A DNA stretch of 64,000 nt from NCBI GenBank assembly GCA_021795235.1, contig JAJYPP010000006.1, positions 3,333-67,332 on the forward strand, read 5' to 3'. A program made the position numbers and the translations under genes. This document shows, one piece after another, positions 2,790 to 30,289 of the stretch. Positions within the stretch are counted from its first letter, which is position 1; every line of letters begins with the position of its first letter. The notes below the pieces were generated by a model that saw nothing but the letters and a program-made list of their open reading frames with translations, was not told where the DNA came from and ran no database searches. Source of the DNA: a bacterium. Its GTDB lineage: Bacteria; Chloroflexota; Dormibacteria; Aeolococcales; Bog-877.

Positions 2790-3691
2790 CGGCGGCGGCT
2801 CGCCGCTGAGCAGGTGTGCACTTGAAACACGGGGTGGTCGAGAGAGGCCCGCACATGGTGGGGAGGCTTCGCCCCGAGTCACCGGCGTCGCAGGCCGAGC
2901 GGGCCAACCGCGCCGACGCGGCCGTGGCACTCCACTCCCTGGCCAGAGGTTCCTGGAAAGGAGGAGTTCGAAACCCCGTCGTATTCCCATCCGCACTCCT
3001 GCTTCGCCCGGCCAATGGGCCTTCTCGCCGCTTCCGGCTCGCCTCCGCTCCACCGCCCATGCCGGCAGCTCCCTCGGTCCCTGAGCTGACTGGTTTCGCA
3101 GAGCATCTTGACCATCACCGCTGGAATGCCTGGTGCAGGGGCGGGCGAGTGGGCGATGCGGATGGCTTGGTCGTGGGTGCGACTCTCCAGCCGTCGGACG
3201 GACGGTCGATGGTTGGTCCGCCCCTGATCATGTCTGGGGTTGCATCAGACCGGTGCCTCTTTGCCCGACGGAGAAGCGTCAGCGCTAGTTCATCGCAGCG
3301 CCGATGGAGTAGCGCGCCAACGCGCTCCGGCAAGGAACTGGGGTGCCAGCCAGCTCCAGATGGCGGCACCGCCCCCGGTCGTGGGCCTCCAGCTCTGCAG
3401 ATCCAGAACCAGGCCGTCTGCCGACCACCGGGGATGTGGGCGCAGTCCGAACGGGCCACGAACCCACCGATCGTGGCTGAGGCATTGTCGACAACCGACA
3501 CCTGGGAGGCGACCTTCAGGAGGGTAGGTCAAGGCCTTAGGAAGACACGTTACTGACAGAGGAAGTCATGCCAACGAACAAAGCGGGAATTTCTTGGGGG
3601 AACTGGTCATGGCGAGGCTCAAGCCATCGGCTATCCCGAGTTCGCAATCCAACTACCATGTGCGGGCAGCGCCCAAGCCAGGGGGTGAGCT

Positions 3692-7768: not shown

Positions 7769-9502
7769 ATGGGCGATGAGGCAGGTCTGGGCGGACGCAG
7801 CGTCGGCGCGCAGTTTCGGGCCACCGGGGCGCTGCGAAAGTTGCGAGGGGCTGAACTGCTGAGCTCACCGGAACTCAACAAGGATTCTGCCTTCTCCGAA
7901 CAGGAGCGGGGTGAGTTTGGCCTCCGCGGACTGCTACCGTGGCGGGTGCTCACCATCGACCAGCAGGTGGTGCTGGAGATGGAGCACATTCGCCGCAAGG
8001 GCGAGGACCTGGAGAAGTACATCGGCCTGGCGGCGCTGCAGGACCGCAACGAATCCCTCTTCTATCGGGTCGTGCTGCAGAATCTGGAGGAGCTCGCGCC
8101 CATCCTCTACACCCCGACTGTCGGTCAGGCCTGTCTGCAATTCAGCCATGTGCTCCGCCGTCCCAGGGGCCTCTGGATCACCCCGGGCGACATCGACCGG
8201 ATCCCTGAGCTGCTCCACAACACGGGTCAATCCGACGTCCGCCTGATCGTGGCCACTGACAACGAGCGGATTCTGGGGCTGGGCGACCAGGGTGCCGGAG
8301 GAATGGGGATTCCCATCGGTAAGCTGGCCCTCTACACCGCCGGGGCGGGCATTCACCCGCGCCTCACGCTGCCCATCTCGCTGGACTGTGGAACCGACAA
8401 CGAGGAGCTGCTGAGCGATCCGCAATACTTTGGCTATCCCCATCCGCGGCTCCGGGGAGATGCCTACGAAGCCTTCATTGAAGCCTTCGTGGGTGCCGTC
8501 TTGGACGTTTTCCCGCACGCGGTGTTGCAGTGGGAGGATTTCAAGCAGCACAACGCGATCCACCTGCTTGGGCGCTACCGCCACCGTATCGCCAGCTTCA
8601 ATGATGACATCCAGGGGACCGCGGCGGTGGTGATGGGGGGAATCCTCGCCGTGCTTCGGCACCGCGGACAGAGGCTTTCGGATCAGCGCCTGGTCTTTCT
8701 GGGAGGAGGTGCGGCGGGGACGGGGATCGCCCGCATGGCCGAGGCGTTCATGGCCGAGGAGGGCGCCGACCCCGCCGAGGTGCGGCGGTCGGTGGTGATT
8801 CTCGACTCGAAGGGGCTCATATTCACTGGCCGCGAGGGGATCAAGGACGACACCAAACCCTTTGCCCTGCCTCCCGGCGAGCTCTCGCGGCTGGGTTTCG
8901 AGCCGGCTGACAGGTACGACTTGGAGGAGGTGGTGAGGCGGTTTGCGCCCACCATCCTGGTTGGGGTGAGCGGCGTGGGCGGCAGCTTCTCCGAGGTCGC
9001 AATTCGGGAGATGGCGCGGTTGACCCTCGCGCCAATCGTGCTTCCGCTATCCAATCCCACTGACAAGTCCGAGGCCACCCCGGCCGACGTGCTGGCTTGG
9101 AGCGGGGGCCGAGCCGTGGTGGCGACCGGCAGTCCCTTCGATCCGGTCGACGTCGACGGTCAACCCCGGCTGGTGGGGCAGGCCAACAACGTGTTCGTCT
9201 TTCCCGGGATCGGGCTGGGGGCGATCGTGGCGCGAGCTCGGGAGGTCACCGAGCGGATGCTGCTGGTAGCAGCGACCACGCTGGCCGGGATGGTCTCTGC
9301 CGAGCGTCTGAACGAGGGTGCGATGTACCCGCCGCTCTCTGACCTGCGTTCCATCTCCAGGGTGATCGCCCTGGCGGTGGCCAGAGAGGCGCGGGCGGGC
9401 GGAGTCGGCCAAATGGCGAGCGACGAGCAGCTTGAGCGAATGGTGGATCAGGCCATGTGGTGGCCCGACTATCCTGCCCTGCTGGGCCCAAGCTCCGATT
9501 GA
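7769..9502 (+). CDS. NAD(P)-dependent malic enzyme
   Basis: LNKDSAFSEQERGEFGLRGLLP, YTPTVGQAC, ATDNERILGLGDQGAGGMGIPIGKL, FNDDIQGTAAV and NNVFVFPGIGLG are malic enzyme motifs. Confidence 0.9.
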   Translation: MGDEAGLGGRSVGAQFRATGALRKLRGAELLSSPELNKDSAFSEQERGEFGLRGLLPWRVLTIDQQVVLEMEHIRRKGEDLEKYIGLAALQDRNESLFYRVVLQNLEELAPILYTPTVGQACLQFSHVLRRPRGLWITPGDIDRIPELLHNTGQSDVRLIVATDNERILGLGDQGAGGMGIPIGKLALYTAGAGIHPRLTLPISLDCGTDNEELLSDPQYFGYPHPRLRGDAYEAFIEAFVGAVLDVFPHAVLQWEDFKQHNAIHLLGRYRHRIASFNDDIQGTAAVVMGGILAVLRHRGQRLSDQRLVFLGGGAAGTGIARMAEAFMAEEGADPAEVRRSVVILDSKGLIFTGREGIKDDTKPFALPPGELSRLGFEPADRYDLEEVVRRFAPTILVGVSGVGGSFSEVAIREMARLTLAPIVLPLSNPTDKSEATPADVLAWSGGRAVVATGSPFDPVDVDGQPRLVGQANNVFVFPGIGLGAIVARAREVTERMLLVAATTLAGMVSAERLNEGAMYPPLSDLRSISRVIALAVAREARAGGVGQMASDEQLERMVDQAMWWPDYPALLGPSSD

Positions 9503-16121: not shown

Positions 16122-16412
16122 GGAATGGCATGGGATATGAGGCGGATCTGGGCGGGCGCACCTCAAGCGCGTGGCTCCGTGCGCAGTTGTTGGGGAAGTT
16201 GCGGTGACCGACCTGCTGAGTTGACGGGAACTCAGTAGAGATGTCGCCTTCTCCGAACAGGAGGTGGATGAGTTCGGGTTCCGCGGACTGCTCCGTGGCG
16301 GGTGCTCACCATCGACCAGCTGCTGGTGCTTGAGATGGACGACATTCGCCGGAAGAGCGAGGGCCTAGCGAGTCGCTTCGACCTGGCCGCGCTGCAGGGC
16401 CGCAACGAATCC
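16122..16412 (+). pseudogene. Decayed duplicate of the malic enzyme 5' end (including upstream leader)
   Basis: Aligns by eye with 7762-8052 (for example ...ccttctccgaacaggag...ccgcggactgct(a)ccgtggcgggtgctcaccatcgaccagc...cgcaacgaatcc). Contains an in-frame TAG and a 1-nt deletion. Translation LTIDQLLVLEMDDIRRKSEG..LAALQGRNES compares with LTIDQQVVLEMEHIRRKGED..LAALQDRNES. Confidence 0.7.
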
Positions 16413-19118: not shown

Positions 19119-20156
19119 TCACGGGCGCCCCGATATGGCCACGCGGGTGATGGCGACCAGGCCGGCCCCAACCAGGGCACAGGCGGGCACCGTGACGATC
19201 CATGCAGTGACCACTCTGGAGACTGTGGGCCAGCGCACGTGATGGCGGCGGCGGGCCGCCCCCACGCCCACCATCCCGGAGGCCACGATCGTGGACGTGC
19301 TCACGGGGGCACCCACATGGCTGGCTCCCAGGATCACCAGCGCCGACCCCGCCTGGGCGGCCAGTTCGTCGAGGGGGCTCCCGCTGTAGAAGCGGGCGGA
19401 GACTGTCCGCACGATCTGGCGGCCACCCACGGCGGTGCCGGCAGCCAGCGTTACCGCGACCAACGCAGTCATCCAGAGTGGAACGGCAAAGTGGGGGAGG
19501 GCTCCGCCCGCAACCAGCAGCCCGGTGCCGAGGCCCATCGCCTTCTGGCCGTCATTGGAACCGTCGGCAAGTGCCACCAGCCCAGCGGTGACCCAGATCA
19601 GGCCCCGCAAGGGACGCAAGGAGCGCCGGGTTGCTCGCTGAGCGACCGGCTTGAGCCCTCTTCGCAGTGCCCCCGCGACGATGCCGCCCAGCATCGGTGA
19701 TATGACCACCGCGGCCAGCGTGCCCGCCACGCCATACGGGCGCCAGCCGTGGATGCCACCCCAGCCGACCGCGCCCCACCCGCCGACGACCGCGGCGGCT
19801 CCCGCCAGCCCGCCCACCAGCCCGATGCTCGCGCTCACCGGGATTCCTCGCCGTGTGGCCAGCACGGTGAAGCCGACGGTGGCCACTCCGCCTGCCAGGT
19901 AGGTGCCAGCCACCTCCGACGGTGGCACGTGAACCAGGGTGATCATGGTGAGCGCCACCGCCTGTCCGGACAGCATCCCCCCGACGGCGTGGAGGATGAA
20001 GGCAAAGCGCATCGCGCCTCGGTACGAGGTCGCGCGGGCGGCGATCAGGGAGGCGCTGGCATTGGGGGCGTCGGAGACTCCGAGCATGAAGGCGAAGCCC
20101 ACGACGACGGCGAACGCCGCGATCCCAAGCAGGCTCACGGGGCGCCGCTGGGGCAC
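19119..20156 (-). CDS. Inorganic phosphate transporter, PiT family
   Basis: FAFMLGVSDAPNASASLIAA near the N-terminus and GSNDGQKAMG in the second half resemble the duplicated PiT (PHO4) signature. Multi-TM. Confidence 0.8.
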   Translation of the reverse strand: MPQRRPVSLLGIAAFAVVVGFAFMLGVSDAPNASASLIAARATSYRGAMRFAFILHAVGGMLSGQAVALTMITLVHVPPSEVAGTYLAGGVATVGFTVLATRRGIPVSASIGLVGGLAGAAAVVGGWGAVGWGGIHGWRPYGVAGTLAAVVISPMLGGIVAGALRRGLKPVAQRATRRSLRPLRGLIWVTAGLVALADGSNDGQKAMGLGTGLLVAGGALPHFAVPLWMTALVAVTLAAGTAVGGRQIVRTVSARFYSGSPLDELAAQAGSALVILGASHVGAPVSTSTIVASGMVGVGAARRRHHVRWPTVSRVVTAWIVTVPACALVGAGLVAITRVAISGRP

Positions 20157-20688
20157 GACCGAGGAAGCCCGCCGCTCCTCTCAGCCATCCCGGCTTCCCC
20201 GGTGGTGGGGACCAGCGGGTGTCCCGGGTGCCAACAGTGGGACTCGAACCGCCACGAGGTTGCACTCCACCGCCATCCACTCCGGTGCGGATCGTCGGGA
20301 CGGACGGGGCCCAGCGGTCTCCGAGGAGCCCTGGGGCCCGGCCGCCGTCCTGCACGGCGCCGCCGCTACCACATCAGGTGCTCTCCTGGACTCGATCGCG
20401 CCGCCGCGTCTCTCCAGGAGAGCCGCACCCGACTCGGGGTCGTGGGCTTCAGCGCGGTCCATGGTCGTCCATTCTGAGAGCAGGGGGCTGCGCGGCCGCC
20501 CACGGGGATCGATCCCGGGACGCTGCGGTCCAGCGGCGGTGCGATGAAACGGCCCGGGTCGGGGCACCAGTGGTGATGCCCTGACGCCATGCCTCTCGCC
20601 CCGGAACTTTGCCGCCCGGTCATGCTTGGACGCCTTTCATCGGCCGCAGCGCACGCTCTTGTGCGCCCCGCCCGCCCCAGCGTGAATC

Positions 20689-21005
20689 TCCGTTGGCACT
20701 GAACTTTGGTAAGCCGACTGCTGTGACACCCCTCGCGGGGTTCCCGCATTGCTGGGTTCGGTTCTGGCCTCATCGAGAACCGCCCGCGCCGAAGCGCTGG
20801 TCTTATGTCCACTCCTCAGGTGACCGGTCATCCGAGCCGCCGCCGGTACCGTCCGAGGACGGCCCGGGAACGAGCGGGGCCGTGGCTCCAACTGAGCCAC
20901 AACTGGCATGGTCCGGCCGGTCGCGGAGGTTTGGGCCTGCGGCTACACCTCCTTGAAACTCATCAGCGCTGATCATGGCACAGCGTACGAGCAACTGTTC
21001 GCAAC
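20689..21005 (-). repeat. Copy A of a ~320-nt non-coding structured element
   Basis: The reverse complement aligns end to end with 28384-28720 (about 9 in 10 positions by eye) with non-triplet indels. Contains hairpins GGAGGT/ACCTCC, GTGGCTC-agttg-GAGCCAC and GCGC-ttcg-GCGC. Confidence 0.75.
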
Positions 21006-21576
21006 TCCATCATTACGGACGGGGGCCCAGGGCTCCGTCCGCTCCCCAGTCTGGGGCAGGACGTACTGGGAGAGGCCGATGCCACTCCGTCGCCTCGGAT
21101 CTCCGGGCACACGGTGGCGGCCGTCGTGCTCGGCCGCAGGGCAACCTGCTGGCGCGGTGAGCTACCAGTGGTCGAGCACCGGCAAGGCGGGTGCCGCTGC
21201 CGGGAACTCCGCCGGCGCCACGGGAGTGAGACGTCCGTCATGGCCCATCGCGGCCCGAGGCGCGTGCAAGACCCGAGGCGGCAAGGGCACCAAGGAAGGG
21301 CACCCGACCGGGGAAGACCGTCTGCCCCGGGTGGGCACTCAGGAGGAACGGTGGCCCCACATTGTCGGGAGCCGATCCGACCGCCACTTCTCCCCCCATC
21401 GCTGTCGATGACCTTGACCTGGCCCCTGAGTGGCTGCAGCCCCGCCTGCTCGAGCGCCAAGAGGAGTATTATGAAAGGTTACCCTTTTCGCAGGTGGGAA
21501 TCCACGTCGGCCCAGCGGTTTGGCGAACCCGAGGGAGGGAGCAGAGATTGCCGGTCGAGGGGTGGTCATGGGGGCG

Positions 21577-21906
21577 GTTGCCAAGCCTCTTCCCGGAGGA
21601 TGGGGTACGGTTGCTCGTGAGACGTGCTGTGACTGGCGCTGATGGGCTTCAGAGAGCGGCAGCCACCGCCCAACACTTCTCTGGCGCGTCGAACACCACT
21701 AGCCCAAGCGCTGCAGTCGATGCCGTGGCTGCGCCGCCAGCGAAAGCGGCGACGGCCAGGACCGGGGGTCATCCGGCGCGGTGGGAGGGAGCGCAAGCCC
21801 AGCGCCAACGGGTCGGGCGGCGCCCGATCAGGCGGAAACCCACAAGGGAATCCCCGGAGAGGGTGTCGAAGGAGCGCGTGCACCAAGGTTCACGCCGCAG
21901 CAACGG
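21577..21906 (+). repeat. Copy C (diverged) of the ~320-nt non-coding element
   Basis: Shares ggttgctcgt..gcgctgatg..agcc.c.gcccaa...gga.tcccc.g.gag.ggtgtc...caccaa.gttcac..gca..aacgg with copies A and B. Hairpins are retained with different sequences (CAGAGA/TCTCTG; CGCCGC-cagcgaaa-GCGGCG). Confidence 0.6.
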
Positions 21907-22237
21907 AGCTCCGCCCGCACTGCCGGGGCCGGGTGTCGCAATGGCCGCATCGACCTCCCTTCGGGGCTCCGCGGGCAGTGGCTCCGAGCCGTGAGCGCCG
22001 GTTCTGTGGGTCGGCGGTCCCAACCATGATGTTCGAGCCTGGGCCCCCTCCGCGGCGGGGAGTCGAGCCGTGGCGCCATGAAGGGGCTGTTCGCGTATTC
22101 CGGCGGGCGCCCCTGAACGCGGCTGGGGCGGCCCGCCCCAGCGCCGGGCGCTCACGCGGGGCGGCGGCAACCTCCCATGGAGAAGGAGAGGGCCGGGAAA
22201 CCCACCCTCCTCCCGGGAAGGCTGGCTGAGGTCCGGC

Positions 22238-23191
22238 ATGGCCACCCGCCTCGCCCCCGAGCTGCAATCCACATTGCCGCAACCGTTGGCGGGACGCCCG
22301 CGGCGGCGGTCCCGGGTCAAGGGGATCCGCTCGGGGAGGTTCGCCGCGCTCTACCTCTCCCCGGCGATGCTGATCTTCCTGGTCTTCACCCTGGGGCCGG
22401 CCATCTTCGTGTTCTACATCAGCTTCTTCAACTGGAACATGCTCAACCCGGCCCAGTCGCAATTCCGGGGCCTGGGCAACTACCAGGAGCTCATCACCTC
22501 GGCAGCCTTCTGGCACTCGGCTCTGATCTCGGCCTACTTCGTGGCCCTGAGCGTGACGATCAGCACCATCGCAGGCTTCGGCCTGGCCATGCTGCTGATC
22601 AGCCGCGGCGGCCTCCGAAACCTTGTCCGTCTCGCCGTGCTCTCTCCCTATTTCACGCCGATTGTCGCCACCTCGATCGTCTGGATCTGGATTTTCAATC
22701 CCCAGTTCGGACTTCTCGACGGAGTCCTGCACGTCCTCCATCTGCCCCAGGTGGGTTGGTTGGAGTCTGAGACCTGGGCTCTGCCGGCCGTGGTTCTCTA
22801 CACGATGTGGCACAACCTTGGCTTCACCGTGATCATATTCATCGCCGGCCTGGCCACCGTGTCGGGCGAGCTTCGGGAGGCCGCCCGGGTGGACGGGGCC
22901 GGGTTCTTGCGCGAGGTCTGGCACGTGGTCCTGCCCCAGATGACCCAGACCGTCCTGTTTGTGGTCGTGATCACCACCATCGGCTCGCTGCAGGCGTTCA
23001 CCCAGTTCTACACCATGACCGGTGGCGGTCCCGTGGATGCCACGACCACCACCGGGTACCTGCTGTATGAGCAGGCGTTCGTCTTCTACAACACCGGTTT
23101 CGCCGCAGCGGTCGCGATGGTCCTGTTCGTGGTGATCGCGCTGTTCACCCTGGCCCAACTCTGGCTCTGGCAGAAGCAGGCCCGGACGTGA
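22238..23191 (+). CDS. Carbohydrate ABC transporter permease (MalF/UgpA-like)
   Basis: Six-TM pattern with the EAA-type loop ELREAARVDGAGFLREVWHVVLPQM. Confidence 0.85.
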   Translation: MATRLAPELQSTLPQPLAGRPRRRSRVKGIRSGRFAALYLSPAMLIFLVFTLGPAIFVFYISFFNWNMLNPAQSQFRGLGNYQELITSAAFWHSALISAYFVALSVTISTIAGFGLAMLLISRGGLRNLVRLAVLSPYFTPIVATSIVWIWIFNPQFGLLDGVLHVLHLPQVGWLESETWALPAVVLYTMWHNLGFTVIIFIAGLATVSGELREAARVDGAGFLREVWHVVLPQMTQTVLFVVVITTIGSLQAFTQFYTMTGGGPVDATTTTGYLLYEQAFVFYNTGFAAAVAMVLFVVIALFTLAQLWLWQKQART

Positions 23192-23291
23192 TGCGGATTC
23201 CTGAGCTGGCGATCCGCCAGTCATCTTCTGACCCAACTCACAGCCAATGGCGAAGTGGAGTTGTCAGCCAACGCAGCAAGGGGGTACGCGC

Positions 23292-24599
23292 ATGAACAAG
23301 CTGAGTGTCAAGTTCGGTATCGGCTCGGTCGTGGCCACGGTGATTCTGATCGTCAGCGGCTGCGGGGCCAGCACCTCGCCCAAACCCAAGGCCACCCCGT
23401 CGGGACCGGTGACGATCTCCTTCATGGAGGCGATGTCATCGGGGACTCTCAAGCCGGCTCTGGAGCAACTGGTCGCGGAGTTTCAGGCCGCGTATCCCAA
23501 GATAACCGTCAATCTGATCGCGGAGCCGAGCTACTCGGTCCTGCAGCAGAAGGAAGAGGCCGCCATAGCTGCCGGCAACCCACCCACCATCGGGCAGGCC
23601 TACGAGAACTGGGCTTCGAGCTACGCCTCCTCCAAGGCGATAATTCCGCTGGCCAGCTTCGTGAACGGAGCCAATGGGATAACCGCCGCGCAGAAGAGCA
23701 AGTTCTGGACCGGGATCTGGAAGGACCTTTACCTGCCCGACGGCAAGATCTGGATGTGGCCCTTCAACAAGAGCGACTTCGTGATGTACTACAACAGCAA
23801 CAGGCTGAGCGCCGACGGGGTCAGCGTGCCTACCACCTGGAGTCAATTCGCGACCGCCGCCAGGACCGTCACCAAGGGGGGCGACTGGGGCCTGAGCATG
23901 GACCCGGGCTCAAGCACCGGACCTGCCAACGGGACCGAGTTCTACATGTCTTTGATCGAAGCCTATGGCGGGCATTGGATCGTCAACGGCAAGCCCGACT
24001 TCGACTCTCCGGCAGCGATCCAGGCGGCCACCTACCTGCAGTCGCTGGTCAAGGCAGGGGCGGTCAAGGTCGGCACCAATTACCCGGGCCAGACCGCCAT
24101 GGGCGCTGGCAGGAGCGCCTTTGACCTCTCGACGATCGCCAGCTACGGCTACAACATGGCTGCGATCGGGGGCAAGTTCCCGATGGGCGTGGCTGCCTTC
24201 CCGAGCGGACCCGGGGGTCAGGGGAACGCCCTTGAGGGCACCAACATCGTCATCTTCTCCGACGCCACCACGGCCCAGAGAGACGCCGGCTGGACCTTCA
24301 TGAAGTGGCTCACCGAGCCGGGCCAGACCGCCTACTGGGCGGAGCACACGGGGTACCTGCCGGTGACCGAGGCGGCCCTGCCCCTGATGACGAGCTACGA
24401 CAGCAGCCATCCCTACCAGGAGATCGCCGCCAAGTCGCTCGACTACGCCACCGGCACTCCGCCCTACGGCTGGTGGACCCAGGCTTCGGGAGAACTCGCC
24501 AGCGCTCTGGAATCGATCCTCATCAACAACGTGTCGCCGTCCTCGGCCCTCAAGACCGCCCAGCAGCAGGCGCTGGCGGCTGAGGCCTCAGCCGGGTGA
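23292..24599 (+). CDS. Extracellular solute-binding lipoprotein (family 1, sugar)
   Basis: MNKLSVKFGIGSVVATVILIVSGCG is a lipoprotein signal with lipobox. The body resembles sugar-binding SBPs. Alternative start at 23247. Confidence 0.8.
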   Translation: MNKLSVKFGIGSVVATVILIVSGCGASTSPKPKATPSGPVTISFMEAMSSGTLKPALEQLVAEFQAAYPKITVNLIAEPSYSVLQQKEEAAIAAGNPPTIGQAYENWASSYASSKAIIPLASFVNGANGITAAQKSKFWTGIWKDLYLPDGKIWMWPFNKSDFVMYYNSNRLSADGVSVPTTWSQFATAARTVTKGGDWGLSMDPGSSTGPANGTEFYMSLIEAYGGHWIVNGKPDFDSPAAIQAATYLQSLVKAGAVKVGTNYPGQTAMGAGRSAFDLSTIASYGYNMAAIGGKFPMGVAAFPSGPGGQGNALEGTNIVIFSDATTAQRDAGWTFMKWLTEPGQTAYWAEHTGYLPVTEAALPLMTSYDSSHPYQEIAAKSLDYATGTPPYGWWTQASGELASALESILINNVSPSSALKTAQQQALAAEASAG

Positions 24600-25498
24600 C
24601 ACCCGTGCAGGCGCCCGCCTCCCAGCCCCGGGCTGGGAGGCGGGGTGGCAGGTCGGCCTTGTTCCGGTTTCTGTGGGGCGCTCGCTCGCGCCGGGCCCGG
24701 GCCGGGGTGGTGGTGCTGGTGATCGGGATCCTCTTCGCGTTCCCCTACTACTGGGTGCTGGTGACCTCGGTCAACAGCCCGGGGCAGGTGTTCGACTTCC
24801 CCCCCCACTTTCTGCCCGGCAGCGATCTGAAGAACTACGTCCAGGCCTGGCAGGGCGCTCCCTGGATTCGCTACTTCCTCAACACCGTGCTGATCTCCTC
24901 GGTCACGGTGGCGATGGCGCTGGTGACCTCACTGCTGGCCGGTTTCGCGCTGGGGGTGATGCACTTCCGGAGCCGCCAGTTCTGGTTCGTCCTGGTGCTG
25001 AGCATGCTGATGATCCCCGCCATGGTGCTGCTGATTCCCGACTACATCATCCTCAAGGACCTGAGCTGGCTGAACACCTATCAGGCTCAGATCGTGCCCT
25101 TCGGCGCCTCCGTGTTCGGAATCTTCCTGTTGCGGCAGTTCTTTCTCGGACTGCCGCAGGAGCTGATCGAGGCGGCGGAACTCGACGGAGCCTCCCAGCT
25201 GGGCTTCCTCTGGCGGATCGGGGTGCCCCTGGCTCGGCCGGCTCTGTTCACGATCGGCCTCTACCTCTTCATCGGGGCCTGGGACAGCTTCCTGTGGCCG
25301 TTCATCATGACCAGCAGTCCCTCCGTACAACCGATCGAGGTCGGTCTGGCCACCTTCTATGGCACCAACGGCACCCTCTGGACCCAGCTCTCGGCGGCGG
25401 TTGTCTTCACCACCCTGCCGGTCATGGTGGTGTTCATGTTCGCCCAGCGGATGCTGGTGAACGGGGTGATCTCGGCCACCAGCGGGGTGAAGGGTTAG
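24596..25498 (+). CDS. Carbohydrate ABC transporter permease (MalG/UgpE-like)
   Basis: GTGA overlap with the SBP stop. EAA loop ELIEAAELDGASQLGFLWRIGVPLARP. Confidence 0.85.
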   Translation: MTPVQAPASQPRAGRRGGRSALFRFLWGARSRRARAGVVVLVIGILFAFPYYWVLVTSVNSPGQVFDFPPHFLPGSDLKNYVQAWQGAPWIRYFLNTVLISSVTVAMALVTSLLAGFALGVMHFRSRQFWFVLVLSMLMIPAMVLLIPDYIILKDLSWLNTYQAQIVPFGASVFGIFLLRQFFLGLPQELIEAAELDGASQLGFLWRIGVPLARPALFTIGLYLFIGAWDSFLWPFIMTSSPSVQPIEVGLATFYGTNGTLWTQLSAAVVFTTLPVMVVFMFAQRMLVNGVISATSGVKG

Positions 25499-26218
25499 AT
25501 GGCGACCGTAGCTGCGATAGTGGTGATGGACCTGGATGGCACTCTGTACCGAGGGGCGGCGCCGTACCGCTATTACGCCCGGCGAATAGCGGACTCTCTT
25601 CCCGAGGAGAGGCGGGGGGAGTATCTGCAGGCGGTGGAGCGGTTCCTGGCGGGGGAGTCCCGGGTGCAGGCTGCCGATGGCTGGGAGGCGGCGGTGGTAC
25701 TGGCGGGCGGGCCAGCCGGGAACTCCAGTGGCTTCTCCCAGGCATTTCTGGAGACCCGGAGGTTCATGCTGGAGAAGCGCTGCGAACTGGAGATCCCGTT
25801 CGGGATGACGGAGTTCTTGGCTCAGGCCCGGCGCCGGGCCCGGCTGGTCCTGGTGACCAACACACCGGCTGAGTACGTGTTCCCGCTGCTGCAACGCCTG
25901 GGACTGGGGAGCAACTTCGACGAGGTCTGCTGCGGGGCGGAGAAGCCCTCGCGATTGGGGCCCAGGCTGACCGCACTGGCCGAGGTCTTCGGCCTCGCTC
26001 CCCAGGCGGTCCTTAGCGTCGGCGACCACTTCTTGAACGACATCGCCCCGGCGCTGACCGCGGGGTGCACCACCGCCTATCTGGATCCATATGGGATCGG
26101 ACCCTCAGGGCAGACGACCTTCGAGTCGCCTGACTTCGAAGGGCTGGCAGAGCCACTCTCCAACTGGCTGGCATCGACTGCAGCGACGGCGGTGCCAGGT
26201 CTGGGATGGCGCCGGTAG
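25499..26218 (+). CDS. HAD-superfamily hydrolase
   Basis: VVMDLDGTLY (motif I DxDGT), LVTNTP (motif II) and SVGDHFLNDI (motif IV). The ATG directly follows the permease stop. Confidence 0.75.
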   Translation: MATVAAIVVMDLDGTLYRGAAPYRYYARRIADSLPEERRGEYLQAVERFLAGESRVQAADGWEAAVVLAGGPAGNSSGFSQAFLETRRFMLEKRCELEIPFGMTEFLAQARRRARLVLVTNTPAEYVFPLLQRLGLGSNFDEVCCGAEKPSRLGPRLTALAEVFGLAPQAVLSVGDHFLNDIAPALTAGCTTAYLDPYGIGPSGQTTFESPDFEGLAEPLSNWLASTAATAVPGLGWRR

Positions 26219-26350
26219 GGCCGGAAGCGAGCGCCACGGTGATACGATGAAAGGTTGGCCTTCTGGCGACGCTCGCGGATGCCGGGGCCCCGAGGGGAGA
26301 GGCGGTCGCGGCGTCTCGGCCCCGGCGCCAGAGGTGACTGGAGATGAGCG

Positions 26351-27649
26351 ATGACCAAACTGCGGTTCGAAGGCGGCGTGGGTTCGATCGGGTCGTCGAA
26401 GGTGATGGTGGAGGATGGGGGATTCCGGGTCCTGCTGGATCTGGGCGACGCCATCCCAGGGGAGCGGGGCCTTCTGATGGCGCCGGTGGTTTCGCGGCCG
26501 GGGTCCGAACTTCGCGATCGGCTGCGGGTCAGGGAGGCGCCGGCGATTGAGCATCTCTATCGGCGCGAAGCCGTCGGCGAGGTGGGCCCGGAGGGCGGCG
26601 GCGACGGTCGCACGGCGCTCTTCCTCAGCCACTGCCACATCGACCACGTGGGATTGATTGGATGGGTGGCGGACGACGTTCCCATCTACGGATCAGCGGA
26701 GACCGTGCGCATGCTGGACGCGCTCGAGGCGGCTGGTGAGCCCCTGGAGGGCGGTCCCCACCACGTCCAGGTTCTGGGCGAGGACCAGCCGATCCAGGTC
26801 GGTCCCATGACGGTGGTGCGCCATGCGGTGGATCATGACGTTGAGGGGGCCTCCGGTTATTCCGTGCACACCACCCAGGGAACAGTCGCCTACAGCGGTG
26901 ACCTGCGGCTGCATGGGCGCCATCCCGAGCTCACCGAGCGTTTCGCGCGGAGGGTGAGGGGGGCGGCGGCCCTGGTCATCGAAGGGACAACATTGAGCGG
27001 CGACCCGAGTGCGCCGATGCGAGATGAGCCGGCCGTGGATCGGCTCTTCGCTGAGGCCCTGGCCCAGACCCCAGGACTGGTGCTGATGTCGCTCTATCCC
27101 CGCGATATCGAGCGGGTTCGAGCCTTCCTGCAGTTGGCGCGCGGGGCGCACCGTCGCATCCTCTGGCCGGAGCCGATGGCGCGTTTCCTGGCCGCATACG
27201 GGGTGGTCGGGGTGGAGACGTACCTGCCCCAGCGGTCACCCGCCGAGGTGAGCCATGATCCGGCAGGTTTCGTGATCCAGATCGCGATGGAGTCACTGGC
27301 CGACATTCTCGATCTGCCGCTGGGTCCCGGTTCACTCTTCCTGCATGCCAACGGCGAGCCGCTGGGGCCCTTCCAGCCGTCGTGGCAGCTACTGCAGAAT
27401 TGGCTGCGATTCCTGGACGTGCCCTTTCGCTCGATCGGCACCAGTGGGCACGCAGCACCGGACGACCTCCACCATCTGGTCGCCGAGGCCGCTCCCGCGA
27501 CCGTCTATCCGCTCCACACCGCCGACCCATTCCGGCTGCTGCCGCCTCCCGGGACCGTCCGCATCCTGCCCCGCTACGGACGGGAGTATCCGCTGGCCCC
27601 CGCGCTGGGACGGGGGAGCGAACAGGATGCGGGGGCAGGACCGAAGTGA
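26351..27649 (+). CDS. MBL-fold metallo-hydrolase, RNase J / beta-CASP-like
   Basis: GGVGSIGSSKVMVEDGGFRVLLDLG then LFLSHCHIDHVGLIGW (HxHxDH). Later GTSGHAAPDDL resembles the C-terminal His motif of beta-CASP nucleases. Confidence 0.65.
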   Translation: MTKLRFEGGVGSIGSSKVMVEDGGFRVLLDLGDAIPGERGLLMAPVVSRPGSELRDRLRVREAPAIEHLYRREAVGEVGPEGGGDGRTALFLSHCHIDHVGLIGWVADDVPIYGSAETVRMLDALEAAGEPLEGGPHHVQVLGEDQPIQVGPMTVVRHAVDHDVEGASGYSVHTTQGTVAYSGDLRLHGRHPELTERFARRVRGAAALVIEGTTLSGDPSAPMRDEPAVDRLFAEALAQTPGLVLMSLYPRDIERVRAFLQLARGAHRRILWPEPMARFLAAYGVVGVETYLPQRSPAEVSHDPAGFVIQIAMESLADILDLPLGPGSLFLHANGEPLGPFQPSWQLLQNWLRFLDVPFRSIGTSGHAAPDDLHHLVAEAAPATVYPLHTADPFRLLPPPGTVRILPRYGREYPLAPALGRGSEQDAGAGPK

Positions 27650-28182
27650 CGGCGGTGGTGGCCGGACCGGGAATGGGTGCCGTCGGGACCAGTGGCCAGG
27701 AGCATCCTGCCGGCGCGGCCCTGGGGGACGAGCGGTCGGAGACCATCTGCGTCGACCTCGACTCGACGCTCTGCGACACCCGCCACCGCCATCCCATGGT
27801 CCTCTCCGGTGAGGACCGCGACCGCACTGACTGGGTGGCGTATTCACTGGCCTGCGAGGCCGACGCCCCGATCCAGGGCACCTGCCACTTGGTCCGCCTG
27901 CTGGTCCGCCACTACCGGATCGTGCTGGTCAGCTCCCGGGACGAGGCCGCCCGCAGCCTCACAGAGCGCTGGCTGGAGGAGTACGACGTTCCTTACGACG
28001 AGCTGATCCTGGGCGGAGTGGCAGGGGCCCCCGAGGGCCTGGAAGAGTTCAAGGTCCACCACGTCCGCAGCCTTCTGGAGCGAGGCGAGAAGGTGGTGCT
28101 GGTGATCGATGACCTGCCCACCCTCCCGGCGGCCATGGCCGCTGTGGGGGTTCCAACACTGAGCGTCCGACCGCCGTACTGA
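27646..28182 (+). CDS. HAD-like phosphatase (polynucleotide 3'-phosphatase / PNKP-type fold)
   Basis: ICVDLDSTLCDTRHR (DxDxT), IVLVSSRDE and VLVIDDLP. GTG 27646 forms a GTGA overlap with the MBL stop. Alternative ATG at 27673. Confidence 0.55.
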   Translation: MTAVVAGPGMGAVGTSGQEHPAGAALGDERSETICVDLDSTLCDTRHRHPMVLSGEDRDRTDWVAYSLACEADAPIQGTCHLVRLLVRHYRIVLVSSRDEAARSLTERWLEEYDVPYDELILGGVAGAPEGLEEFKVHHVRSLLERGEKVVLVIDDLPTLPAAMAAVGVPTLSVRPPY

Positions 28183-28383
28183 CGCCGGCCGCAGGGTGCG
28201 GGCGACTGGAAGACAACTCAGGGAGATCGTCGCCGGGTCGAAGTGGGCGCGGGCTCGACGGTTTGGACGACTCGGCCGTGGATGTCGACCGAGTCATGGC
28301 GCCGAGCGGTGGTGGGGACGCCCTGGATCAGCTCGGCAGTTGGTGCCGGTCAGGGCAGCTCCGGTGCCATCAGCGTGCCGGGG

Positions 28384-28720
28384 GTTGCGAACACTTGCTC
28401 GTACGCTGGGCTGTAATCAGCGCTGATGAGTCTCAAGGAGGTGTAGCCGCAGGCCCAAGACCTCCGCGACTGGCCGGACCATGCCAGTTGTGGCTCAGTT
28501 GGAGCCACGGCCCCGCTCGTTCCCGGGCCGTCCGCGGACGGTACAGGCGGCGGCTCGGATGCTCGGATGCTCGGATGACCGGTCACCTGAGGAGTGGACA
28601 TGCGACCAGCGCCTCGGCGCGGGCGGTTCGCGGTGAGGCCAGAACCGAACCCAGCAAAGGAGGAACCCGCGAGGGGTGTCACAGCAGTCGGCTCACCAAA
28701 GTTCACTGCAGTGGCAACGG
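28384..28720 (+). repeat. Copy B of the ~320-nt non-coding structured element
   Basis: See copy A. Differs from A by scattered substitutions, 1-nt indels and a 16-nt expansion (two extra gctcggat units). Confidence 0.75.
28553..28576 (+). repeat. Tandem octamer (gctcggat) x3 inside copy B
   Basis: Three perfect head-to-tail units. Copy A has a single unit at the homologous position. Confidence 0.9.
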
Positions 28721-29111
28721 TGGGTCAGCCGCCCGCCGCCGTTCCAGCCGGGGCGCGGTGCGGTCCGGCGACCGCTCCCGCCTGGCGGCGGAATCACAAC
28801 CAGTGCAAGGCGAGAGCGTCTCTGCCGCGCTCGGCAGCTCCAGCCGGGGCGCCGGCGGGCGTCCTGGGGGGGAAGTCACGGCGAGGGGCGACCGCAGTGG
28901 CATTGAGGTTGCGGTGGAAGCCGCGCCTGTCGGCGGCCAGGAGAATCTGAACGTTGGCGGCCAGCAAGACCGCGCGGGGCAAGGTGAGGTGGGTTTGGGA
29001 GGGGGCTTGTGGGGTTTGCTGACGGCGGGGCGGCACCCAGCGCCTCGGAGGTCCGTGCCGGAGCTGTCCACCGTCCTGCCCCAGGACAAGTCCTGTCGTC
29101 AGGCGCCCGGT

Positions 29112-29606
29112 TCAGAGGCCCGGAACACACTCCTCCAGGCGGAAACCGGACTCTGGCCCTCCGCACTCCGGGCAGCCGGATGGCGGGACCACCCCGCGGA
29201 CGGCTCCGCCACAAGTTTGGCAAACCCACTGATGGCGGCACAGGAAGCTGACCAGGCCGTGGCGCGAGAGCCTGCCAACCAACTTCCCGTGGTTGACCAC
29301 CGCTATTGCCGGCATGCGCCGCTGCAGGAGCAGGTCGGCCGCCTCGGTGACCGGCCTGTCCTCGTCGACGGTTCCCAAGGGCGGCGCCATCACTTCGCCG
29401 ACGGTCTGGTTCCGGAGCCGTCCCAGAGCGGCGCGCTCGATCAAGCCCACCACCTGCATGTGCTCGTTGATCACGGGCATGCCGGCGACGCGGTTGAGGC
29501 GCAAGGTCTGAGCGGCCTTGGTCGCTGACTCGCGATCTTCCACCGCCAGGACATCCCGGCTCATCACCTCCCACACCCGCAAGCTCAGCGTATCGGTCGA
29601 CATCAC
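29112..29606 (-). CDS. CBS-domain pair protein with C-terminal zinc ribbon
   Basis: VMSRDVLAV...GMPVINEHMQVVGLI and VMAPPLGTVDED...PAIAVVNHGKLVGRLS form two CBS motifs. The tail CQTCGG...GCPECGG is a CxxC-x14-CxxC ribbon. Confidence 0.75.
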   Translation of the reverse strand: MMSTDTLSLRVWEVMSRDVLAVEDRESATKAAQTLRLNRVAGMPVINEHMQVVGLIERAALGRLRNQTVGEVMAPPLGTVDEDRPVTEAADLLLQRRMPAIAVVNHGKLVGRLSRHGLVSFLCRHQWVCQTCGGAVRGVVPPSGCPECGGPESGFRLEECVPGL

Positions 29607-30264
29607 TCCGATCTCGTGGTCCTGGTCTCCATCGCCGATCCAGCTGGACCCTACACCCCGGCGCCGACGCTGACCAACGGGGAATCCCTCGGGTGGTCGA
29701 CGTGAGTGATCACGGATCCTGGCCTGTGCCCATAGAGCGAGCGCAAGCCCCCGGCTTCAGCCGTGGGGTCGAGCGAGCGCACGGAGTGGAACAAGGAAAG
29801 CTCGATACGGAGCGCGGCTCCAGCCCCAGGACTTCGGGGCAGGCCGGCATCGAGCGGCATGGAACCCACAAGTCAGCTGCTGTGCGGCGGTACCGGAAGC
29901 GGAGCTTCTGGACAGAGTGGGTCGGCTTGAACCCGGTACAACCCCGGTCCACGGCGGGGTCGGTGAAAGCCGCCCACGAGACAGCCGGGGCCAGACGGGA
30001 GTCCCCCGGATTCATCCGTGGGGAGGAGGTCAAACTCGACGCCGGTGGTGGCGCTGCTCCAGTCTCCACCGGTGCGCGACCACGTCCGCTGTCCTTTCAC
30101 CGGGGCCACCTGGCTGGTTCCCCCGCGCCGAAGTCGGAGCCGCCGATCCCGGGAGCGGGCCGGCGCGGCGATTCCCGCTGTAGCTGGGGGCGGCGAATCG
30201 TGGCGCACTGAACCGCTGGGCTCATCGCTCCGTGCCCGCCGGATCCTCTCGCTTGAAGGCGGGA

Positions 30265-30289
30265 GAGTGGGGGCGTGCCGCCCTCACTC
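30265..30289 (-). terminator. GC-rich stem-loop at the end of the oxidoreductase operon
   Basis: gagtgggggcg (30265-30275) pairs with cgccctcactc (30279-30289): 11 bp including one G-U, with a 3-nt loop. It starts at the porB-like stop codon. No clear U-tract, so terminator function is tentative. Confidence 0.4.

Follow-up and report, generated by a model that had tools for sequence, protein, structure and literature searches.

Palindrome-associated transposable elements (PATEs) are protein-less derivatives of IS200/IS605 transposons that often encode an omega RNA, on which TnpB acts in trans (Meers et al. 2023, PMC10055086). RAGATH-18, a structured RNA found by comparative genomics, later turned out to be the guide scaffold (reRNA) of IS607 TnpB, and 36% of its matches do not adjoin TnpB (Ren et al. 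2024, PMC11061315). The locus described here lies in a 64-kb stretch of a genome assigned to the Dormibacteria (Chloroflexota; contig JAJYPP010000006.1, positions 3,333 to 67,332), which is called the window below and holds three copies, A, B and C, of a non-coding element of 307-336 nt. An earlier note, made from the letters alone, had proposed these copies as an unclassified structured RNA family. Considered as a whole, the evidence makes it highly probable that they are protein-less, non-autonomous IS607 derivatives, comparable to miniature inverted-repeat transposable elements (MITEs) and PATEs, which would be mobilised and used in trans. Wherever tnpA, tnpB or a guide match is said to be absent, the statement holds for the window.

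The logic of these mini-elements is that of PATEs: a minimal element with both ends and a guide-RNA module, without protein genes, which would need TnpA and TnpB in trans. However, PATEs derive from the Y1-transposase, single-strand "peel and paste" IS200/IS605 elements and have palindromic ends, whereas the elements of the window derive from the serine-recombinase IS607 elements and their 5' part consists of the tnpA promoter and start region. A brief, non-exhaustive literature search found no report of IS607-derived mini-elements with an omega RNA. At the level of sequence, comparison establishes the identity of both ends, the homology and integrity of the scaffolds of A and B, and an insertion-like, lineage-specific distribution. 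The copies and a small repeat that distinguishes two of them are located as follows:

20690..21004, minus strand: copy A, whole mini-element of 315 nt, running from TTGCGAACAG... to ...GCCAACGG
28385..28720, plus strand: copy B, whole mini-element of 336 nt
21600..21906, plus strand: copy C, older and diverged mini-element of the same layout
28553..28576, plus strand: tandem GCTCGGAT, three units in copy B (one unit in copy A)

Copy A is delimited by the sharp ends of its likeness to B and by the ends of full-length IS607 elements, copy B by its sequence and the A-B alignment, and copy C by its collinearity with both through the internal junction; an alternative left tip of C, TTGCC at 21578, is possible. 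Local alignment found all three essentially where they had first been reported. A (21008..20696) and B (28381..28709) are 94% identical over 312 nt and their likeness breaks off sharply at either end, while C shows 66-68% identity to both. The 16-nt expansion and the 1-nt indels said to separate A from B are real: the expansion corresponds to the two additional GCTCGGAT units of B, which fall in an apical hairpin loop of the model alignment, and several 1-nt indels were seen. The non-coding character of the copies also holds, as the stretches that contain all of them (20200-22100 and 28150-28780) are non-coding by third-position GC; the neighbouring genes show the strong third-position bias expected at 68.6% GC.

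The larger, 3' part of each copy derives from the 3' end of a tnpB gene and the right end of the transposon (bit scores refer to the covariance model R1, described below):

20690..20932, minus strand: omega-RNA scaffold of copy A, a tnpB 3'-end remnant with the right end (198.1 bits; 85% identity to the 3' end of the full-length element L032)
28458..28720, plus strand: omega-RNA scaffold of copy B (197.8 bits; 49 of 50 pairs; TnpB C-terminus found by tblastn)
21673..21906, plus strand: degenerate omega-RNA remnant and right end (...GCAGCAACGG) of copy C (16.3 bits; 34 of 50 pairs)

When copy B was compared with plasmids by sensitive blastn, the sole match was the last ~100 nt of Mycobacterium plasmid tnpB genes, which are annotated as "IS607 family element RNA-guided endonuclease TnpB" and lie directly downstream of an "IS607 family transposase"; blastn of copy C against plasmids gave no match. 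A full-length example from the Actinomycetota is carried by the M. avium plasmid pS2b (NZ_CP076860; tnpA WP_084046934, tnpB WP_084050182). The C-terminus of the M. avium TnpB (aa 480-533) matches copy B in tblastn with E 2e-9, and it matches A too. The closest full-length relative is a 2,239-bp element on the metagenome contig L032, which encodes both proteins: its TnpA, a serine recombinase, matches Resolvase PF00239, and its TnpB matches OrfB_IS605, Cas12f1-like_TNB and HTH_OrfB_IS605. The last ~250 nt of this element are 85% identical to A and 83% identical to B. In tblastn, its TnpB C-terminus matches B in one segment (75% identity, E 4e-25) and A in two frameshifted segments (E about 5e-25), the identities to A and B ranging from 69 to 79%. 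What is left of tnpB in the copies is thus the C-terminal tail, that is, the last ~75 codons, frameshifted. The earlier note had argued that no reading frame is shared between the copies; the indels behind this argument exist, but A and B still translate, with frameshifts, into the C-terminal tail of TnpB. A 66-aa conceptual translation of A, used as a tblastn query, matched nothing.

In 20 aligned copies, homology extends to (G/A)CAACGG (GCGACGG in one of them) and is gone directly beyond it. Judging by this alignment, the transposon's right end lies where similarity is lost after CAACGG. It is at this end that the scaffold stops and the guide starts in TnpB systems, and the corresponding flanks of A and B are:

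20670..20689, minus strand: flank of copy A at the guide position, a putative guide
28721..28740, plus strand: flank of copy B at the guide position, a putative guide

The divergence of the 20 copies right after CAACGG is consistent with a guide at this position and is no proof of guide use.

The 5' part of the copies has another origin. The first ~70 nt of A and B are not matched by the tnpB of L032, but they are matched by TnpB-less copies on the contigs L036, L027 and L037, and their first 54-56 nt align with the left end and tnpA start of L032. In this alignment the row of A reads GCGAACAGTTGCTCGTACGCTG...GCGCTGATGAGTTTCAAGGAG and that of L032 reads GCGAACAGTTGCTCGTACTATG...GCGGAGATGAGCTTGAAGGAG. 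The left-end parts of the three copies are:

20949..21004, minus strand: left-end module of copy A, with the IS607 left end, the -10-like hexamer CATGAT and a vestigial tnpA start, ATG AGT TTC AAG GAG
28385..28440, plus strand: left-end module of copy B, with the -10-like hexamer TGTAAT and a vestigial tnpA start, ATG AGT CTC AAG GAG
21600..21656, plus strand: left-end-like module of copy C (...GGTTGCTCGTG...GCGCTGATGGGCTTCAGAGAG), homologous to the left ends of A and B

The tnpA start of L032 is ATG AGC TTG AAG GAG, so that five codons of tnpA (ATG and four more) are left in the copies. A profile built from five tnpA-linked left ends only was searched over the whole window. Its top match was A (21021-20949, E=2.5e-7), followed by B (28381-28440, E=6.3e-7), and both alignments end exactly at the junction, ...AAGGAG; the third-best match was the 5' part of C, in the right place and with E=0.31, which is not significant alone. 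A -10-like hexamer stands at a fixed 8 nt upstream of the old tnpA start, reading TATAAT in L036, TATAGT in L028, TGTAAT in B, CATGAT in A and TGTGAC in C. In 10 of 10 copies, GG or GGGG stands before the left end, and the right end terminates in GG. Serine recombinases of IS607 elements cross over at a GG dinucleotide, and these bases fit such a crossover.

The window copies therefore share with the full-length IS607 elements of pS2b and L032 the left end (TTGCGAAC.GTTGC...), the right end (...GCAACGG) and a homologous last ~260 nt (74-85% identity, 198 bits against the model), but they differ in having neither tnpA nor tnpB and, consequently, no movement or TnpB production of their own. Of what marks an autonomous IS607, the ends are present and TnpA and TnpB are missing. 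On the other hand, the copies show what marks a MITE or a PATE-like element: they are small, have no transposase gene, keep both ends of the parent, share a common inner structure and lie in unrelated flanks. Each copy equals nt 1-57 joined to nt ~1957-2239 of an L032-type element, and the junction falls on the codon for TnpB's third RuvC aspartate. An internal deletion of ~1.9 kb removed nearly all of tnpA and tnpB and fused the 56-nt left end to the last ~260 nt, which hold the tnpB tail with the omega scaffold and the right end.

Since the flanks of A and B are unrelated right up to the element ends, the two copies point to insertion rather than to segmental duplication. The pair is inverted around a 7.4-kb operon and 94% identical, as might be seen if A and B had arisen by an inverted segmental duplication, or if gene conversion had kept them alike, instead of by two transpositions. 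This origin is very unlikely, because the likeness has its limits at the very ends of IS607, TTGCGAAC on the left and CAACGG on the right, and the flanks are unrelated, whereas a duplication normally carries some flanking DNA along.

Concerning the RNA structure, a first alignment left out all window sequences and comprised 15 copies taken from full-length or truncated tnpB elements; RNAalifold predicted 65 pairs in it, 34 of them with compensatory changes. Covariation statistics were obtained from a model-based alignment of 21 copies, with 500 shuffles and slid alignments as controls. The paired cells amounted to 95.4%, against 83.7% in the shuffles and 30-48% in the slid controls, and 33 pairs had changed on both sides, against 20.1 +/- 2.5 and at most 16, respectively; none of the 500 shuffles attained the observed values. 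The conserved structure claimed in the earlier note is thus borne out above both kinds of control. The covariance model R1 was built from tnpB-linked copies only, again with no window sequence, and has 258 positions; the scaffold is ~258 nt long with 12 helices. A and B match it over its full length (positions 1-258; E 1.7e-60 and 2.2e-60), with scores inside the range of the training members (178-260 bits), and the independent mini-elements of L036 and L027 score 214 and 211 bits. Copy C has an E of about 8e-4 and many broken pairs. In the sequence alignment, A keeps 46 of the 50 consensus pairs intact, compared with 49 in B and 34 in C. The scaffolds of A and B are as intact as those of tnpB-linked copies, and C is old and largely degenerate.

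The RNA structure is real, and it is the omega/reRNA scaffold of a TnpB nuclease: it is homologous to the stretch that overlaps the 3' end of tnpB and extends to the right end, the structure is backed by covariation, and variable sequence lies 3' of the scaffold. No match to Rfam 15 was found in the whole window at gathering thresholds, and at E<=10 the region of A and C (20200-22200) gave chance-level matches only, with no RAGATH-18. The lack of a known family match reported in the earlier note thus holds for Rfam, but the RNA belongs to a known class and is not a new one. As with RAGATH-18, a structured RNA sits at the 3' end of an IS607 tnpB, RAGATH-18 being the proved TnpB guide scaffold. 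The clade found here is distinct from the RAGATH-18 clade: its TnpBs have about 540-550 aa compared with about 390 aa, its scaffold has ~258 nt and 12 helices, and no Rfam model matches it.

Regarding the single hairpins reported before, helix 3 has its equivalent in helix 9 of the model, a hairpin with strong covariation. Helix 2 of A and B (GUGGCUC/GAGCCAC) is genuine as well, being helix 3 of the model, and it covaries in the family, with UA replaced by CG in five sequences. However, the CGCCGC/GCGGCG hairpin of C, which had been set against it as its covarying counterpart, aligns with another hairpin of A and B (CCGTCC/GGACGG), so that two different helices had been compared. Copy C, which had also been taken as the main source of hairpins kept by different sequences, is largely degenerate, with 16 bits next to 198. 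Helix 1 (GGAGGT/ACCTCC in A and B) pairs a 5' strand that stems from tnpA codons 4-5 (AAGGAGG) with a 3' strand that stems from tnpB, where it forms the codons AAC CUC C; because its strands come from the two genes, it is confined to the deletion derivative. All five mini-elements that were folded are predicted to form it, and z-scores of -0.7 to -2.4 lend it modest support. In C it reads CAGAGAG/CTTCTCTG, where one pair has changed on both sides, one has become a wobble and the helix is shifted outward by 3 bp, and the evidence amounts to effectively one independent comparison, A and B against C.

To find relatives, metagenome contigs were scanned with a conserved 28-nt block, which gave 18 loci. 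Most of them encode a TnpB 55-63% identical to that of M. avium, often with tnpA upstream. Mini-elements of the same layout as A, B and C occur on L036, L027 and L037. The one on L036 lies between an IS66 transposase and MeaB/methylmalonyl-CoA mutase, and that on L027 adjoins a GH15 hydrolase and the stub of another IS607. At positions 9281-9779 of L027, an IS607 left end with ~35 tnpA codons and a stop stands directly upstream of the mini-element, and in this arrangement the mini-element has inserted within or beside another copy of IS607.

The six copies (A, B, C and those of L036, L027 and L037) are collinear through the join of left end and tnpB tail, at two levels of divergence and on at least three contigs. 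Because the same layout recurs at both levels and on other contigs, the deletion derivative itself appears to have spread as a mini-element. If the copies were instead independent wrecks of full-length IS607 elements that decayed in place, with no spreading family, separate deletions would have had to reach the same point, which is not expected at two divergence levels and on different contigs. The flanks of A and B, unrelated up to the element ends, also speak against such wrecks. The degenerate state of C, the few broken pairs of A and the truncated IS607 pieces found elsewhere (L002, the internally deleted L030, and the left-end/tnpA stub of L027) speak for decay in place; all in all, its chance is very small, and the copies are not three separate wrecks.

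A different TnpB-less arrangement was observed on L029, where a scaffold of 249 bits (400-727) starts 5 nt past a tRNA-Asp gene within a tRNA array (Trp, Tyr, Pro, Lys, Asp ... His, Gln), with a tnpB-only element and its own omega RNA downstream. The same type occurs at L023 (1931-2258) and L024 (419-746), and its 5' junction is unlike that of the left-end-fused window copies. Co-transcription of such a scaffold with the tRNA and processing by tRNA enzymes are conceivable. When the viral contig collection was scanned with an omega-RNA pattern, no match was obtained.

As for how the mini-elements could work, a TnpA serine recombinase encoded elsewhere in the genome would recognise the kept ends and move the element in trans. 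Transcription may start at ~20963 (minus strand) in A and ~28426 (plus strand) in B, ~31 nt ahead of the scaffold, and would read into the flank. The predicted product is an omega RNA that takes its guide from the DNA directly beyond the right end. If TnpB is provided in trans, it could take up such an RNA and cleave empty sites, which would favour the persistence and retention of the mini-element. To judge by the left flanks, the target-adjacent motif (TAM) may be rich in G.

Several observations weigh against this picture. Neither tnpA (tblastn with two TnpAs) nor tnpB is present in the 64-kb window, and for this reason we only infer the partner that acts in trans. The flanks at the guide position recur nowhere else in the window when 16-20 nt are compared and 0-1 mismatches allowed. 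Only ~6 copies of the mini-element were found in total, and a scan of the genome collection with a mini-element-specific pattern (GCGCTGATGRGYYTCARRGAG) gave 18 chance matches in unrelated phyla and no mini-element; with so few copies and this result, recent mobility is unsupported. The -10 boxes of A (CATGAT) and C (TGTGAC) are poor, a scan for consensus promoters and terminators gave no result, and the terminal inverted repeat is very short (TTGC...GCAA). Furthermore, A has 3-4 broken pairs and the scaffold of C is mostly lost, 15 nt standing for a 37-position stretch of R1; both features fit ongoing neutral decay.

A more far-reaching possibility is that A and B are still live guide-RNA genes without a protein, driven by the leaderless tnpA promoter ~31 nt before the intact scaffold, and that they form the serine-recombinase (IS607) counterpart of PATEs that bear an omega RNA. 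This is doubtful on the present sequence evidence. The same proposal holds that the deletion may have created the junction hairpin GGAGGU/ACCUCC, which would exist in mini-elements only. If A and B were live, each would make a guide that targets its own empty site, would depend on full-length IS607 copies for TnpB and TnpA, and would thus be a guide-only parasite of an RNA-guided nuclease.

The setting of the copies in the window has to be considered too. PHO4, a Pit transporter, is encoded at 19119-20156 on the minus strand, and an operon of ugp-like ATP-binding cassette (ABC) transporter and HAD phosphatase genes at 22238-28182 on the plus strand. An unclassified structured RNA, acting in cis or in trans, unrelated to mobile DNA and perhaps linked to phosphate genes, would agree with the position of A upstream of PHO4 and of C upstream of the operon, with the real covariation and with the lack of an Rfam match. 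Nevertheless, the copies have the two ends of an IS607 element and a body homologous to the tnpB 3' end. No mini-element is present in the orthologous transporter/phosphatase operon of L022, a relative too distant to serve as an empty-site strain (70% identity of the binding protein). Copies elsewhere adjoin unrelated genes (methylmalonyl-CoA mutase, IS66, GH15), the gene next to B is convergent, which leaves B nothing downstream to regulate, and the end of A lies 530 nt from the PHO4 start. The earlier note itself had named the ends of a known insertion sequence or MITE, or a decayed gene, as what would speak against its proposal, and the copies carry two IS607 ends and a decayed tnpB 3' end. 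Such an RNA is therefore extremely improbable. A conserved position upstream of one gene family across genomes, as in a cis-regulatory leader or riboswitch, was not found; given the L022 operon without an element and the copies beside unrelated genes, the position next to the Pit and ugp-like genes is incidental.

The guide RNAs of TldR reportedly accompany a tldR gene and no longer lie within a transposon. They resemble the window copies as omega-RNA-like scaffolds in intergenic DNA, but the window copies have no TnpB-like gene nearby, keep both ends and show no target match in the window. The copies could still be imagined as domesticated guide RNAs of a nuclease-dead TnpB relative, a TldR-like repressor regulating the nearby phosphate or transport genes. 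The intact scaffolds of A and B and the location of the copies in promoter-containing intergenic DNA would suit this role, and TnpB-derived RNA-guided transcription factors are known (PMC10705468). It is nonetheless highly improbable: no TnpB-like gene occurs in the window, the guide-position flanks match no other site there when <2 mismatches in 16 nt are allowed, the copies retain the two ends of the transposon, and relatives lack elements at this locus.

With the reading as IS607 mini-elements, an apparent new RNA family becomes a recognisable class for annotation, namely mini-elements in which the guide-RNA module of TnpB is retained. TnpB research gains an actinobacterial IS607 clade whose TnpBs are large and whose scaffold is absent from Rfam, together with a covariation-supported model usable for annotation. 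For transposon biology, this reading offers a candidate for the uncoupling of guide RNA and nuclease within a serine-recombinase family, which bears on the modularity of TnpB. It opens no new biological question.

Some candidate features were tried and rejected. The 70 nt at the 5' end of A, considered as a decayed TnpB zinc-finger region, are the left end; CUGAUGAG, considered as a hammerhead core, is the tnpA start region GCGCUG AUG AG; GTTCAC, considered as PhoP boxes, is a conserved part of the right end that also occurs in copies away from phosphate genes; and a weak tblastn match near 58 kb, considered as TnpB, lies inside a squalene-hopene cyclase gene.

Around the operon, the gene order permease/binding-protein/permease/HAD/metallo-beta-lactamase/HAD is the same in the window and in L022, where it is flanked by nucleoside-metabolism genes. 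PHO4/PhoU_div lies ~5 kb downstream of the operon in L022, and PHO4 lies divergently upstream of it in the window. Mini-elements stand at both borders of the operon in the window, A and C on one side and B on the other, and the borders of the rearrangement between the window (19119-28182) and L022 may coincide with the insertions. The pit/ugp-like neighbourhood has unusually long intergenic DNA, and further stretches without a coding signal around the mini-elements are 29600-30280, 20157-20689 and 21005-21599. Ten open reading frames, lying within or around the non-coding stretches close to the copies, had no match in Pfam. An open reading frame of 232 aa (28876-29574, minus strand), convergent with B, shows a strong third-position GC bias and has no Pfam match.

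Farther away in the window, a 203-nt direct repeat (7853-8056 and 16210-16412; 80-85% identical, 8,356 nt apart) resembles by eye the N-terminus of a malic-enzyme-type protein; its second copy contains in-frame stops and may be a pseudogene fragment. Moreover, ARAGORN reports a tRNA-Trp (CCA) at 3155-3247, which at 93 nt is unusually long for a bacterial tRNA-Trp.

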